DNA from: a virus
Lineage: Duplodnaviria > Caudoviricetes
Length of the DNA: 34,914 nt
Strand: one strand, 5' to 3'
IMG/VR virus record: IMGVR_UViG_3300037502_002994
Location: 1 to 34,914 of that record
Below, piece by piece: positions 13,038 through 19,092 of the stretch. The notes below the pieces were generated by a model, which had not been told where the DNA came from, made no database searches, and was given only the letters and a program-made list of their open reading frames with translations. The position numbers and the translations under genes are program-made. The first letter of the stretch is position 1. Each line of letters starts with the position of its first letter.

Positions 13038-13487
13038 ATGAGTTTTCCACAAAGGTTAAGAATGTTAAGGAAATCAAAAGGCTTAACTCAAGAAGAATTA
13101 GGACGGAAAGTTAATGTTACTAAGGTATCAATTTCAGGATATGAGAGCGGAAATAGAACACCAGATATGGATACTTTAAAAGCTCTGGCTGATGCATTAG
13201 ATGTAAGCGTCGACTACCTATTAGGAAGGGACAAAGCTCAATATACAAACACCACCCTCCCCGAACTCACTGAGAAGGATGAACGTGACATCCAAAAAGA
13301 ACTTGAGAACCTTATCGCCGGGCTTAAATCAAAAAACGGCTTCGCTGCTTTTGGCGGACAAGACATTAGTGAGCTGGACGAAGAGGATCGGGAACTTCTC
13401 ATCGCTTCTCTTGAGAATTCGTTGCGAATTGCCAAACGCATCGCTAAACAAAAATTCACACCGAAAAAGTACAAAGAAAAACAATAG
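13038..13487 (+). CDS. CI/ImmR-like XRE repressor
   Basis: LTQEELGRKVNVTKVSISGYESGNRTP HTH; C-terminal KFTPKKY typical of ImmA-paired repressors. Confidence 0.92.
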   Translation: MSFPQRLRMLRKSKGLTQEELGRKVNVTKVSISGYESGNRTPDMDTLKALADALDVSVDYLLGRDKAQYTNTTLPELTEKDERDIQKELENLIAGLKSKNGFAAFGGQDISELDEEDRELLIASLENSLRIAKRIAKQKFTPKKYKEKQ

Positions 13488-13503
13488 CAACAGGGGGTTA
13501 CTG

Positions 13504-13926
13504 ATGGCAGGTTGGATCAAACGTGAAGTACAAAAGTTAGTCAAAAAGCACGGCACCAACAACCCCTTCGAGATCGCATCACAGAAAGGTATTGTGCTTG
13601 TGTATGAACAGCTGGGGAACATATGGGGATATCATCACACTTTTAAGCGCATCAAGATCATCCACATCAACGACGATTTGGACGAGCCTATGAAGCGCTT
13701 TGTTTGTGCGCATGAGCTTGGTCATGCAGTCTTGCATCCTGATCTTAGTACCTCATTTTTGCGAAAACGCACACTTTTCAGTATGGATAAGGTGGAAAGG
13801 GAAGCTAATACGTTTGCCATCCGGTTGCTGCTATATGATGATGAGATTATGGAGGGAGAAACCATTGAGCAGTGCTTCAGGAGAAATGGAATTCCTGAAG
13901 ATATGTGTTATCTATATCAAATGTGA
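13504..13926 (+). CDS. ImmA/IrrE-family metallopeptidase (antirepressor protease)
   Basis: AHELGHAVLH...EREANTFA; follows the repressor. Confidence 0.92.
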   Translation: MAGWIKREVQKLVKKHGTNNPFEIASQKGIVLVYEQLGNIWGYHHTFKRIKIIHINDDLDEPMKRFVCAHELGHAVLHPDLSTSFLRKRTLFSMDKVEREANTFAIRLLLYDDEIMEGETIEQCFRRNGIPEDMCYLYQM

Positions 13927-13940
13927 GGGGGAGATTCACC

Positions 13941-14729
13941 TTGAAGGGAATCGGAGCATTTGTTGATGTTGAAACCACGGGGTTGGACACCAAAGCCGAT
14001 GAGATTGTCGAGATGGCCATTGTTCTTTTTAAGTATGACTTGGATAGCGGTCAGATTGCAGAGATTGTGGATGAGTATTGTAGTTTTAACGAGCCATCTA
14101 GAGGGATACCAAGAAAAGCTACAAGTGTGCATGGTATCCGCAAAAAGGATGTTAGAGGACACCAACTGGATCATGACAAAGTTACACAGATGATTGAGAA
14201 GGCTGACTTCATTGCTGCTCACAATGCCAAGTTTGACAGAGGATTTATTCAAAGATACTTTCCTGTAGCAAGTAACAAGCAATGGTATTGCTCAATGAAT
14301 GGTATTCCGTGGCGTTCGTTCGGTTTTAAAAAGAAGTCCCTCGAATCCCTGTTGCATAGTCATAATATCAACATTCAACAAAAACACCGAGCGCTGGATG
14401 ACGTCCATTTGGCGTTACAATTACTTAAGCAACCTTCTCCAGACGGCCAGCCATATCTGAAGTTGATGCTCAAAAAACCATTACCCCCGTCTACAGATCA
14501 AGAAGTAGCGGCCGCCACTGAAACAGTTCAAACTAAAAAACCAATATTACAATTATTGATGGAACAGAAATGGATGGCTTGGGTTGTCACATTAGTATTT
14601 CCCTTCTGGTTCAAAGAAGCACTACTAATCGGCCCAGCCATGATGTGGCTGTATAAGCACCATTCACTAAAAGCCAGATTGTCCATTTCCGTTGTGGCTA
14701 TCATCATATACTTTCTGTTAAGGAGTTGA
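13941..14729 (+). CDS. DEDDh (DnaQ-like) 3'-5' exonuclease with C-terminal membrane anchor
   Basis: ExoI DVETTG, ExoII HNAKFD, ExoIII HRALDD; Pro/Thr linker, then hydrophobic segments at the C-terminus. Confidence 0.85.
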   Translation: MKGIGAFVDVETTGLDTKADEIVEMAIVLFKYDLDSGQIAEIVDEYCSFNEPSRGIPRKATSVHGIRKKDVRGHQLDHDKVTQMIEKADFIAAHNAKFDRGFIQRYFPVASNKQWYCSMNGIPWRSFGFKKKSLESLLHSHNINIQQKHRALDDVHLALQLLKQPSPDGQPYLKLMLKKPLPPSTDQEVAAATETVQTKKPILQLLMEQKWMAWVVTLVFPFWFKEALLIGPAMMWLYKHHSLKARLSISVVAIIIYFLLRS

Positions 14730-15894: not shown

Positions 15895-16108
15895 GTGGGC
15901 AAAAAGTGGGCAAATCCTCTTTTTGTCTGCCTAAAAACCTGATATATAAGGCTTAACCAATACTGCCTTCCATTTCAAACTTAATTATTTAAGGTTTTCA
16001 TATTGTTTCAACGATTAATAAAAACCTTGATATAAAAGGGTTTTTAAAAATCAGCTTATCAAATTTTATCATATTTTTTCGGGCAAAAGTGGGCAAAAAG
16101 TGGGCAAA
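15895..16108. other. attP with GTGGGCAAAAA arm-type repeats; core 15953-15985 = 3' end of sufB
   Basis: Two arm repeats at 15895-15914 and three at 16081-16108; reverse complement of the core reads IKFEMEGSIG-stop, the SufB C-terminus. Confidence 0.85.
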
Positions 16109-16140: not shown

Positions 16141-16170
16141 GAAAAACCCCACGGCTTGACCGCGGGGCTA
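16141..16170 (-). terminator. Intrinsic terminator of the accessory operon
   Basis: CCCCGCGG-tcaag-CCGTGGGG-TTTTT. Confidence 0.8.
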
Positions 16171-16199
16171 TTTGTGTATTCTATATATGCTCAAATAGC

Positions 16200-16568
16200 T
16201 CAGACAAGCTTCCATCCTGTAGAGGCAACCGTCTGGACAATGTGTCCGTTTGGGAGCTCTTTTTTCTCGCGGCGATCATTGTGAAAAACGTACACCCCTT
16301 CAAGGGCGTATGCCTTCGCTCCTGTGTTCGCGTCCATGCATTGTGCCACCAGAGCAGAAAGTTCCTTGAGCATGTACGGCACAGGCGAGGCAAAGACAAC
16401 AATATCTGCATTGTTCGCCAGGTACTCAACGTGCCCTTTCATCTCGGACAACTTCCAACCATCTGCAGGGACGAGAAATTCTTCGTATGAGCCAAAATAC
16501 TCCTTCAAAATTTCAATTTGCTCAGGGAAAAGAGAATGTTGTTCATTTTTCACTACGAAAACTTTCAT
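16200..16568 (-). CDS. Small alpha/beta protein resembling Csx20/Csx15-type ring nucleases (candidate anti-type III CRISPR)
   Basis: Strand + H-x-L-x-x-E-Q N-terminus; C-terminal R-x-E-x3-LPNG hairpin; AAAGGAGG RBS. The CDS is secure; the function is inferred. Confidence 0.5.
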   Translation of the reverse strand: MKVFVVKNEQHSLFPEQIEILKEYFGSYEEFLVPADGWKLSEMKGHVEYLANNADIVVFASPVPYMLKELSALVAQCMDANTGAKAYALEGVYVFHNDRREKKELPNGHIVQTVASTGWKLV

Positions 16569-16587
16569 CTTTGTTCCTCCTTTCAAT

Positions 16588-16621
16588 CCCGCCGTATTTA
16601 TAGTCGCCCGGCGGGTGGCGA
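16588..16621 (-). ncRNA. H-type pseudoknot in the leader of the last accessory gene
   Basis: UCGCC-A-CCCGCCG-GGCGA-CUAUAAAUA-CGGCGGG: S1 5 bp and S2 7 bp, both perfect. Confidence 0.6.
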
Positions 16622-16627
16622 ATATTT

Positions 16628-16909
16628 TTAAGATGATTCGCTGAGCTTCTCAAACTCTTCCTCGGATATAAGAATACCCTCGATCAGAGCATAGCTCAGC
16701 GTGTGTTCGTTGCCGCGTCTAAACTCAATTATTTTGGGCTTGAGAATGTAGCGATGATCACGGTCTTGGCAACCATCGCGCCAGCCGTATTGGGAGCGTA
16801 CATGAAGCGCTCGCACCTTTCTAATTTCACGAAACAATGACTCAAAAGGAACGAAGTTTCCTTTCTCATCATACCCATACGAATACCCACGAACCACTAC
16901 TTTTTGCAT
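16628..16909 (-). CDS. Hypothetical accessory protein
   Basis: GAGG RBS; abuts the HTH stop codon; start may be 16918. Confidence 0.7.
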   Translation of the reverse strand: MQKVVVRGYSYGYDEKGNFVPFESLFREIRKVRALHVRSQYGWRDGCQDRDHRYILKPKIIEFRRGNEHTLSYALIEGILISEEEFEKLSESS

Positions 16910-16910
16910 A

Positions 16911-17105
16911 TCATTCATCCTCCTTTGATTTTTTCGGCTCCGGCCCGTACACCGCGGTCATGGCCTGCTCGGTGACGAGCCAGGTTGAGCCGGATTTTCG
17001 CACGTGGCCTCGTTTGATCCACTCATCGAAACGACCACGCGATATTGCTACTCTGACAGTGCCGCTAGGTTTCCCCCACCGCTCATCCGCCTCGCTAGCC
17101 GTCAT
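16911..17105 (-). CDS. Small winged-HTH protein (Aca-like candidate regulator)
   Basis: MTASEADERWG...TVRVAI..G....RKSGSTWLVT..AM..VYG pattern. Confidence 0.75.
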   Translation of the reverse strand: MTASEADERWGKPSGTVRVAISRGRFDEWIKRGHVRKSGSTWLVTEQAMTAVYGPEPKKSKEDE

Positions 17106-17125
17106 GACGGATGAGAGTGGGGGAA

Positions 17126-17401
17126 CTACTCCCCCAAGCAGTACGCCAGATACTCGCTCACCTCTTCCTCATCAACCCAATCGGAGGCGAATTTTTCAAA
17201 GTCTTCACCATATCCAAAGAAGAACGTCCACACTTCATCAATTTGATGATCTGCGATCCAGTCAACAAAGTTGCTGAAGGATTCAGTTTGAAAATTGCGG
17301 TCCACATTCCACCGCACGAACAAGTCCGCGGAAAGAGACCAGTCCGTGTCCCGATTCACCACTTCCTCAAAAATTTGTTTGACACGATCAGCTTTTTTCA
17401 T
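17126..17401 (-). CDS. Acidic, aromatic-rich 91-aa protein (DNA-mimic / Acr candidate)
   Basis: 22 D/E versus 8 K/R; AAGGAGG RBS. Confidence 0.7.
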   Translation of the reverse strand: MKKADRVKQIFEEVVNRDTDWSLSADLFVRWNVDRNFQTESFSNFVDWIADHQIDEVWTFFFGYGEDFEKFASDWVDEEEVSEYLAYCLGE

Positions 17402-17451
17402 TTCGTTCATCCTCCTTTTGGTTTTGAGAGAGGAGGGGTGAACCCTTCCCC

Positions 17452-17622
17452 TCATTTGATTTCAATGGTTTTCCCGGCATCCAAATCCGTCACATACACT
17501 TTTCCTTCTTCATGGCGACACATGACTTGAGCCAACTGGGCAGCCAATTCTAGGTTGAGCGACTCAATTTCATGCGTTTCATTCTTCTCAAGTGCGACGA
17601 TGTCAACCAGAAACTTTCGCAT
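17452..17622 (-). CDS. Small hypothetical accessory protein (56 aa)
   Basis: AAAGGAGG RBS before MRKFLV. Confidence 0.7.
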   Translation of the reverse strand: MRKFLVDIVALEKNETHEIESLNLELAAQLAQVMCRHEEGKVYVTDLDAGKTIEIK

Positions 17623-17635
17623 TTTTCCACCTCCT

Positions 17636-17998
17636 TTATGCAACATATTTTTTTGCTTTCAACTGGGCATCTACAGCCCAGGTTCCACCAGAAGTGGCGG
17701 CATGGAATTGACCAGTTTGAGCGTCGATGTATCCGCCAAGCTGAGTTTTCAGAATGCTGAACATCCCGGCTTTGTACAAGAGGAAAGTCACTTCGCCGTC
17801 GATGTAGATGCGATGCTTGCCGTATTTTTTCCACTCTTTTCGGCGTGTCTCTTTGTAGGAGACAACGGCAGTACGATCTTTGACAGCTTCCCAGACCATT
17901 TTCAAGGCCATTTTCAGACGAGCCTGATAGTCACCTTCCAAACGTTTTGCAATTTCGTGAGCTTGCTTCATGATTTTGCTCAGGATTTCTTTTTTCAT
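17636..17998 (-). CDS. Basic hypothetical accessory protein
   Basis: IMKQAHEIAK..ALKMVW helical hairpin and WKKYGKHRIYI motif; first gene after the promoter. Confidence 0.75.
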   Translation of the reverse strand: MKKEILSKIMKQAHEIAKRLEGDYQARLKMALKMVWEAVKDRTAVVSYKETRRKEWKKYGKHRIYIDGEVTFLLYKAGMFSILKTQLGGYIDAQTGQFHAATSGGTWAVDAQLKAKKYVA

Positions 17999-18019
17999 TT
18001 TGTTCATCCTCCTTTTTGT

Positions 18020-18072
18020 TACGCTTCCGTATCGTTTGATTATAGTATATACGATACCGTATCAGATTGCAA
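18020..18072 (-). promoter_or_regulatory. sigmaA promoter with two palindromic operators
   Basis: TTGCAA-N17-TATACT; TACG-N4-CGTA at 18050-18061 (in spacer) and 18020-18031 (downstream of -10). Confidence 0.8.
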
Positions 18073-18169: not shown

Positions 18170-18200
18170 ACAAAAAAACCCCCCACCACGAGGGTGAGGG
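18170..18200 (-). terminator. Terminator after the lysin gene
   Basis: CCCTCACC-ctcgt-GGTGGGGG followed by a T7 tract. Confidence 0.85.
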
Positions 18201-18206
18201 CAATGG

Positions 18207-18905
18207 TCATGGTCTATACACATCAATAAAACTGTCAAAGCCGGCTTTTTTGAGTTCAGCAACGCGTTTTTCAGCGTTTGCTCTGTCTGCGAATGATCCA
18301 GTCACTACACGATACATGACATTTCCTTGCGGTTGGGTTTGGGCTTTCGGTTGTGGTTTTTGTTTCTTTTTCAACCCAAACGCCTTGGCCAGCCCGTTTA
18401 CATGCCCGCGTGCAATCCGGTCAAGGAACGCAGAATCGCGTAACAGACGCGCATCATTCGCGTTGTCCACAAACAAATTTTCTGTGAGAACGGCCGGCAT
18501 CCTAGTCAGCCGCAACACGGCAAAATTGGCCGCCTTTTTGCCGCGGTCTCGTACACCGCTCAACATTCGCATGATCTCATCATGCACAACATTTCTGAGG
18601 GCGACTGTTCTGCTAGCCTGGCTTGTGTGAATGAACGACTCGAAGCCGGTGCCGCCGCCGGCATTGTGGTGGATCGAAACAAAGTAGTCAGCGCCCCAAT
18701 TGTTCGCCATGCGAGCACGATCCTCCAGGCTCACAAACACATCCCTGTCTCTGCTCATGCGAACCTGAACGCCATCGTACTCGTTGAGCAGGATATCGCG
18801 CATCCGCAACCCGATTTGCAACGCCAGTTCCTTTTCCTGCATCCCGTTTGCCACTGCCCCGGGATCCCGTCCACCGTGTCCGGGGTCGATGAAAATTTTG
18901 GTCAT
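18207..18905 (-). CDS. Endolysin: Amidase_3 + SPOR-like domain (CwlC-like)
   Basis: IDPGHGG..E, VSIHHNA, LTENLFVD; C-terminal YRVVTGSFADRANAE. Confidence 0.95.
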   Translation of the reverse strand: MTKIFIDPGHGGRDPGAVANGMQEKELALQIGLRMRDILLNEYDGVQVRMSRDRDVFVSLEDRARMANNWGADYFVSIHHNAGGGTGFESFIHTSQASRTVALRNVVHDEIMRMLSGVRDRGKKAANFAVLRLTRMPAVLTENLFVDNANDARLLRDSAFLDRIARGHVNGLAKAFGLKKKQKPQPKAQTQPQGNVMYRVVTGSFADRANAEKRVAELKKAGFDSFIDVYRP

Positions 18906-18906
18906 A

Positions 18907-19092
18907 TTAGTTTTCCTCCTTTTCACGATGATTAGCGTCAACATAAGATTCACCAAGAATATACCCAATGGCTACAGCTGCCACTGACAATACAGCCTCG
19001 GTTGGTAGATTCAATCCGAGGCCGTCATTTGCCACAACAAGCAACGCTGTCACCACTGCCATCCAAAATTTGCGTGATTTGAGTTTGTCCAT
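18907..19092 (-). CDS. Holin
   Basis: KLKSRKFW followed by two hydrophobic helices and YILGESYVD; directly upstream of the lysin. Confidence 0.88.
   Translation of the reverse strand: MDKLKSRKFWMAVVTALLVVANDGLGLNLPTEAVLSVAAVAIGYILGESYVDANHREKEEN

Follow-up and report, generated by a model that had tools for sequence, protein, structure and literature searches.

The virus record IMGVR_UViG_3300037502_002994 (the window: a linear record of 34,914 bases, analysed as a whole) carries a compact cassette of six small genes, g1 to g6, on the minus strand between the terminator of the lysin gene (18200-18180) and the attachment (att) region. By its sequence features this is a probable anti-defence cassette with an apparently undescribed kind of regulation resembling control through Aca (anti-CRISPR-associated) proteins, in which the helix-turn-helix (HTH) regulator g4 is predicted to be made as a −1 frameshift extension of g3. 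The features of the cassette are as follows, in the direction of transcription:

18044-18072, minus strand: SigA-type promoter TTGCAA-17-TATACT, matching the consensus at 9/12 positions
18049-18062, strand-neutral: operator 1, ATACG-N4-CGTAT, within the −35/−10 spacer
18020-18032, strand-neutral: operator 2, ATACG-N4-CGTA, directly before the ribosome-binding site (RBS) of g1
17636-17998, minus strand: g1, 120 amino acids, basic, with an N-terminal helical motif common to the Gp111-like first genes of related cassettes
17452-17622, minus strand: g2, 56 amino acids, acidic cargo with an isoelectric point (pI) of 5.0
17126-17401, minus strand: g3, 91 amino acids, very acidic cargo (pI 4.1), likely the N-terminal part of the frameshift fusion
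17126-17135, minus strand: predicted −1 slip site G GGG GAG, abutting the g3 stop codon TAG
17071-17125, minus strand: 3′ hairpin following the g3 stop, about 20 bp long, with the g4 ATG at its top
16911-17105 from the ATG, or 16911-17135 in the −1 frame, minus strand: g4, HTH_59 (Pfam)
16628-16909, minus strand: g5, 93 amino acids, orphan cargo
16200-16568, minus strand: g6, 122 amino acids, Rossmann protein of CARF-like type and predicted ring nuclease or sponge for cyclic oligoadenylates
16145-16169, minus strand: cassette terminator, near-identical in locus L001, where it stands immediately after the HTH

An earlier note, made from the letters alone, had described much of this anatomy, and its six genes, SigA promoter, pair of operator-like palindromes and dedicated terminator (16169-16145) are all present. 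Its strong RBS for every gene is found at five of the six: AGGAGG-type sites precede all but g4, whose ATG has no Shine-Dalgarno (SD) sequence. Gene starts were picked by SD spacing, and those of g3 and g6 agree with database calls (91 and 122 amino acids). Taken alone the promoter match is weak, with 12 promoter-like sites in the scanned region against 6.3 expected. The palindrome TACG-N4-CGTA occurs just twice in the 34.9 kb window, both times within the cassette promoter (18020 and 18050), and runs X2 and X3 hold a variant of operator 1 with an altered N4 centre (18056).

The junction between g3 and g4 carries the central claim. The end of g3 reads G GGG GAG TAG, and this stop does not interrupt the −1 frame, which runs into the HTH_59 domain (Pfam, E 5.6e-16). 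The domain scores 64.3 bits with the −1 extension and 58.7 from the ATG. The only ATG of g4 lies inside the hairpin. An approximate shuffle gives z-scores of −5.6 to −7.2 for the hairpins of the window, L001 and L106, as against −2.2 to +1.0 in 13 controls; another computation puts the window hairpin at −3.2. A slippery heptamer in register thus leads into a conserved −1 open reading frame (ORF) lacking initiation signals of its own, although the window keeps its ATG without an SD sequence. These features, with their recurrence in relatives, make it very probable that the repressor is a −1 frameshift fusion with g3, of a predicted length of about 163 amino acids. The HTH noted earlier is therefore present, but probably not as a free-standing gene. 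An assembly error at the junction was ruled out: L001 is identical there, and independent contigs span it without gaps. An Rfam search returned two matches, both at chance level.

Similar junctions recur elsewhere. Besides L001, an exact 21-base search retrieved the element in L138, an unrelated metagenome contig; the HTH_17-like frame that it opens there has no start codon ahead of the first helix. A relaxed motif scan returned at least 120 loci out of about 130 (40 with short flanks, redundant entries kept), in which the motif's stops end ORFs of at least 100 codons in 34 of 117 scorable cases, compared with 306 of 13,549 other TAA/TAG sites (2.3%). It added the HTH-like cases L142, L144, L175 and L195, together with tail-type genes and a Big_2 extension. 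In L138 and these four the HTH is HTH_17-like or unassigned (that of L175 was assigned by eye and has no Pfam match), and no ATG, GTG or TTG precedes the first helix.

An HTH_59 alignment, which makes no use of the motif, fetched 73 viral loci, many of them near-identical, that were classed automatically as having their own start (61), an in-frame fusion (7) or a frameshift (5). L287 and L335 were reclassed by eye as frameshifts because they share their junction with L274, L286 and L292; all five read G GGA AAG-TAG, and none has a methionine before the end of the HTH. In L106, which belongs to the 11 genome loci inspected among 30 fetched, the slip site is A AAA AAG-TAG. Both heptamers are described as shift-prone in passages of PMC5009743, and GGGGGAA, near-identical to the window heptamer, is a phage motif in PMC10885494. 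Among 482 distinct called genes of the 73 HTH_59 loci the three heptamers close only six, each of them the gene directly ahead of the HTH. The cargo-HTH pairs joined in this way thus use three different slippery heptamers, mostly without a usable start codon for the HTH. The 12 cargo proteins compared fall into 11 unrelated families (only those of L274 and L287 are related), and all are acidic (pI 4.1-5.5). No HTH_59 was found in 12 family-level genomes.

An alternative is that this is an ordinary operon of the kind formed by anti-CRISPR (Acr) and Aca genes, in which the HTH is a separate 64-residue protein translated from the ATG at 17105 through translational coupling, the slip-like site being a coincidence. 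In its favour, the larger part of the HTH_59 domain follows the in-frame ATG, HTH_59 genes mostly possess a start of their own, and such short proteins are called in databases (P0065). But that ATG has no SD sequence and is buried in the hairpin, the domain match reaches upstream of it, and the relatives with three different heptamers have no usable start, all of which make a separate HTH improbable. The fusion could also be real yet arise through RNA polymerase slippage, with one base added in the run of five Gs at the slip site; transcriptional slippage can give equivalent products, as parts of PMC5009743 describe. However, the G GGA AAG of the relatives contains no long run, and the heptamer always stands in tandem-slip register and abuts the stop, so that we consider polymerase slippage very improbable.

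Several observations weigh against a ribosomal frameshift. The automatic classification gave 61 of the 73 viral HTH_59 loci (including the two reassigned by eye) their own start. Several frameshift-type loci have a weak hairpin (z −0.3 to −3.4, or −0.75 to −1.2 in another computation), and the own-start loci L275, L280 and L281 a strong one (z −3.9 to −6.0). Its covariation is insignificant, with three sequences, one compensatory and two one-sided changes, and 189 of 500 shuffles. Lastly, the window and L001 retain an ATG, which in the window is in frame 20 nucleotides past the g3 stop, where reinitiation is possible.

The element was also seen at the ends of other kinds of gene. In L149, L150, L152, L160, L185 and L208, G GGG GAG followed by a stop and a hairpin closes genes of tail or capsid type whose −1 extensions are short or Ig-like, and in L208 it leads into a Big_2 domain. 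In L156, L171 and L206 (at 1501) it closes a long helicase-like ORF and opens a 59-residue, cysteine-rich −1 extension. A single genome, G823, has three copies with TGA that end one ORF family (L259, L261 and L262); the long −1 frame of L262 has, by eye, the look of a DNA-binding domain.

The regulatory region recurs as well. A SigA-type promoter with one palindrome in its spacer and one before the RBS lies upstream of g1-like genes in L001, JGon-2020a (L035), AP45 (L034), A403 (L036), L264, L286, L287 and L335, and the same layout precedes the first gene of L106 and L292; the ACG-N4-CGT form of the operator was not found in NIIg3.2 (L032), E2 (L033) or L175. Compared by eye and without a tree test, the operator arms vary with the recognition helix of the HTH: ATCACG arms accompany TVR-SSC/AAC/ASC helices, GATACG arms TVRVAI or SVRRDL, and CCCG-type arms TVKRAC. 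On these patterns the HTH most probably binds the ACG-N4-CGT operators, and we infer that g4 is an Aca-like autorepressor. The PHROG label of 'excisionase' for g4 was set aside, as relatives occupy the same cassette far from any integrase, though in the window g4 is near att. The acr-aca-like architecture proposed in the earlier note is thus borne out, in that promoter, paired operators, g1-like gene and HTH_59 recur together in phages, often beside the lysin.

The cargo varies within this framework. L001 and the window have the g3-g4 junction, the HTH ends and the terminator in common, but their cargo differs and L001 lacks g5 and g6. The Parageobacillus phage JGon-2020a has a g1-like gene, a gene with the g3 domain (55% identity), an HTH_59 fusion and a 121-residue gene. 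In contigs of the compost runs, 16170 is joined to 16932, 16623 to 16928 and 17142 to 17397 (short sides of 22-38 bases, 85% likeness), which is consistent with an exchange of cargo between fixed joints. GC-rich intergenic hairpins stand at 16590-16625, before the g6 RBS, and at 17426-17451, before the g3 RBS; compost contigs without g6 cover the former well, and both may be sites of RNA processing or recombination joints.

Most of the cargo proteins resemble little, and of the six genes g4 alone, with HTH_59, matched a named family. g1 has a weak match to PF07410 (E 0.06), and its viral scan gave just two 14-residue matches, which were disregarded. g2 has no family match in Pfam, NCBIfam, PHROGs or PADLOC scans, and no homolog search was made on g2 alone. 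The structure model of g3 is unusable, with a predicted local distance difference test (pLDDT) value of 58. Family scans, homolog searches and the Atlas gave no usable matches for g5, which has short relatives in compost contigs.

g6 is more informative. It has 64 close relatives in a family of 527 representatives at 50% identity, and its near-invariant positions are N8, H11, Q17, S61-P62-x-P64, H96-N97-D98-x-R100 and a K-K-E-L-P-x-G hairpin. His11, present in 99% of 180 family sequences, aligns with the Motif-I histidine of Csx20 and Csx15 between β1 and α1. In Csx15, according to sections of PMC13148439, the Motif-I histidine is catalytic and accompanied by a second histidine and an arginine cluster, and certain Csx15 proteins merely sequester cyclic tetra-adenylate (cA4). 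A profile of the 180 g6 members scores 32.5 (P 3.8e-5) against an 18-sequence Csx20 profile over 26 N-terminal columns, a score reached in none of 60 column shuffles (maximum 24); Csx20 against Csx15 scores 36, and g6 against Csx15 23.5. The g6 model is confident (pLDDT 94.5) and Rossmann-like, aligning with Csm6 at Z 5.5 (root-mean-square deviation 2.9, 92 aligned residues) and with Csx1-Crn2 at Z 5.2 (3.8, 104 aligned). Taken together, these resemblances incline us, by a modest margin, to the view that g6 acts on cyclic oligoadenylates.

Against this, the fold matches to CARF and SAVED proteins (Z 4.9-5.5) lie under or level with those to LacI-type Rossmann domains (top Z 7.0), the Csx20 match is limited to 26 columns, and the NCBIfam model of Csx20 (NF040559) is listed for none of the 57 g6 members at E up to 1. 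Our own Csx20 profile reaches a best E of 0.0009 in the g6 family, with 2 of 180 members under 0.01, and an Atlas match of g6 to MJ1673 (0.87) is a lead only; the Csx20 model has matches in M. jannaschii. The Foldseek comparison of g6 suggested by the earlier note gave nothing in PDB or BFVD at E 0.001, and phmmer searches of PDB with g6 and g4 found no match. Among the best 50 VIA-align matches for g6 there was no Csx15 or Crn1 chain, which excludes nothing. AcrIII-1 (DUF1874) is not detectably related to g6 (hhalign probability 1%; none of 180 members under E 0.01 with hmmsearch). g6 belongs to neither Csx20 nor Csx15, though it resembles both.

The genomic neighbours of g6 relatives, as annotated by Pfam in 150 of 151 representatives, include ArdA (one cluster, three loci), ArdC, RadC (twice) and ribbon-helix-helix and HTH regulators, but no Cas family; it also counts against an anti-defence role that the majority have no Pfam annotation. 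A CRISPR array was found in none of 43 g6 loci, a weak test since just 2 of 19 Csx20 loci, with their short flanks, had one. Profiles of g6, Csx20, Csx15 and DUF1874 matched none of 284 proteins from HTH_59 loci, and g6 and HTH_59 are therefore not regular partners. Diverged second g6-like copies adjoin a g6 homolog at L017:4940-5239, L029:5272-5532 and L048:5499-5864. A repeat of about 34 bases at L010:1530-1750, upstream of a g6/ArdA cluster, is a tandem repeat; a CRISPR array was ruled out there.

An association with anti-defence comes from JGon-2020a. Its 121-residue gene (L035:2642-3007) aligns with seven DUF1874/AcrIII-1 proteins at an hhalign probability of 92% over 76 columns, with a score of 41 (shuffle maximum 19), and keeps the GH motif. 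The GH motif has a catalytic role in DUF1874/AcrIII-1. Two cassettes of the same type thus each appear to carry a different candidate ring nuclease, a guilt-by-association result of the kind that the earlier note had suggested looking for. In scans of neighbours a protein in L003, beside g6 and with a g1-like N-terminus, matches AcrIIA3 at 23 bits (cut-off 70), a match that g1 itself does not have (NCBIfam), and otherwise no Acr was found among 119 chosen neighbours (NCBIfam) or in 54 of 109 cargo clusters (Pfam). Two further results count against the anti-defence assignment: the JGon-2020a gene goes undetected as DUF1874 by Pfam and by phmmer against PDB, and no protein of the window matches a named Acr or Aca in Pfam, NCBIfam, PHROGs or PADLOC, the earlier note having recognised no named Acr among the five non-HTH proteins. 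A divergent AcrIII-1/DUF1874-like gene was also seen in Moorella phage MTATph1 (L136:2348-2824).

The cassette might alternatively be accessory and autoregulated, of the moron or host-takeover kind, with a cargo that does not act against defence and with g6 binding another nucleotide or acting in metabolism. The missing named Acr, the generic Rossmann matches of g6 and the occurrence of certain g6 relatives among replication or metabolic genes (L019) all suit such a cassette. What makes it rather unlikely is the AcrIII-1-like gene of the sister cassette, the ArdA and ArdC genes beside g6 relatives, the Motif-I histidine of g6, and a cargo that is small, acidic and rapidly swapped. We therefore favour an anti-defence function as the likely role of the cargo.

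As a whole, the locus is on balance probably an operon with a −1 frameshifted g3-HTH repressor and a cargo that disarms host defence, including a predicted ring nuclease. In such an operon the host RNA polymerase would fire the cassette promoter upon DNA entry or prophage induction. The majority of ribosomes would halt at the g3 TAG and free the cargo, and a minority would slip by −1 at G GGG GAG to make g3-HTH_59. This protein would dimerise on the two ACG-N4-CGT operators, so that the promoter would be closed only once cargo had accumulated. With its invariant His11 and its His96/Arg100/Lys cluster, g6 would bind cA4 or cleave it, and so blunt type III CRISPR signalling.

The remainder of the window encodes terminase, portal, capsid, lysin, integrase, repressor and antirepressor, and the features that flank the cassette are:

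18207-18968: lysin, Amidase_3+SPOR (Pfam match)
18180-18200, minus strand: lysin terminator, the cassette's upstream boundary (terminator scan)
15953-15985, strand-neutral: att core, downstream of the integrase (contig comparison)
14737-15891: integrase (Pfam match)

The lysin and integrase genes converge on the att region, a layout as in a free temperate phage genome. Other contigs of run X1 have just 15953-15985 in common with the window, which supports the att core. The core (15953-15988) can be read as the final codons of a minus-strand host gene, whose frame carries on in host-like contigs; it may be the 3′ end of sufB. Repeated GGGCAAAAAGTGGGCAAA units at 15895-15914 and 16080-16108, on either side of the core, are likely integrase arm sites. 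The stretch between repressor and integrase (13279-14729) encodes an IrrE-like peptidase as well as a DEDDh exonuclease whose C-terminus is hydrophobic. The cassette genes have their named relatives in Parageobacillus, Geobacillus, Aeribacillus and Anoxybacillus phages, from which we infer a thermophilic Bacillota host.

More generally, we put forward as a tentative proposal, held with somewhat less than even confidence, that Bacillota phages repeatedly append an autorepressor to the preceding anti-defence protein by a −1 frameshift, with the slip rate setting the ratio of inhibitor to repressor and the regulator being missed or truncated by gene callers, and that g6 represents a new and large viral family, of ring nucleases or signal sponges, separate from AcrIII-1, AcrIII-2 and Csx20. 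If so, Aca-type control would gain a route through translational recoding, and anti-defence operons whose regulators gene callers miss would be exposed. The slip-site-plus-HTH junction and the ACG-N4-CGT promoter would then guide searches for new inhibitors (a small sample yielded 11 unrelated families of acidic cargo), and g6 would be a candidate viral enzyme, new and widespread, that counters cyclic-nucleotide immunity. In the literature searched, HTH_59 itself comes up in one paper, reportedly a phage genome description.

AcrIF24 is reportedly an Acr with a built-in HTH autorepressor. Aca12 is a domain of AcrIIA36, according to the Aca survey of 2026 (PMC13551039, main text). Both unite cargo and repressor in one chain, as do the in-frame cargo-HTH fusions of 7 of the 73 loci, but these are fixed fusions, whereas the fusion predicted here would be a minority product set by the slip site. 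The acr-aca operons of the same survey (Aca1-14) resemble the cassette in their strong promoter with inverted repeats, small cargo genes and co-encoded DNA-binding regulator, and csx20 homologs are reported there from Aca14 operons. The cassette likewise has a co-encoded HTH (HTH_59) and promoter-overlapping inverted repeats kept with the regulator, but its regulator is likely appended to a cargo gene by frameshifting; neither HTH_59 (PF20038) nor the word 'frameshift' occurs in the survey's main text. The only frameshift proposal of this kind in the literature searched, outside which most subscription papers lie, concerns the split AcrIB2 homologs gp28 and gp29 (described in part of PMC10732046), also within a phage acr locus; there a +1 shift would join two Acr halves, and no HTH is joined.

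g6 shares with Csx20, Csx16 and Csx15, as presented in sections of PMC12409355 and PMC13148439, a length of about 120 amino acids, a derived Rossmann fold, a histidine in the β1-α1 loop and a basic C-terminal hairpin, and the same sections place Csx20 in a few phages. It differs in having no family-model score, in its own SPxP and HNDRxKKELPxG motifs, and in its viral and small-gene surroundings, where 43 loci held no CRISPR array. The −1 frameshifts of phage tail chaperones and Ig-like extensions (covered in portions of PMC5009743) likewise place a slippery heptamer near the gene end and yield a C-terminal extension, but they add a virion domain, whereas here the addition is predicted to be a transcription regulator. 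The parts of the cassette thus have precedents in acr-aca operons, Acr-HTH fusions, phage −1 frameshifts and viral ring nucleases; their combination, like the g6 family, appears to be undescribed in the literature searched.

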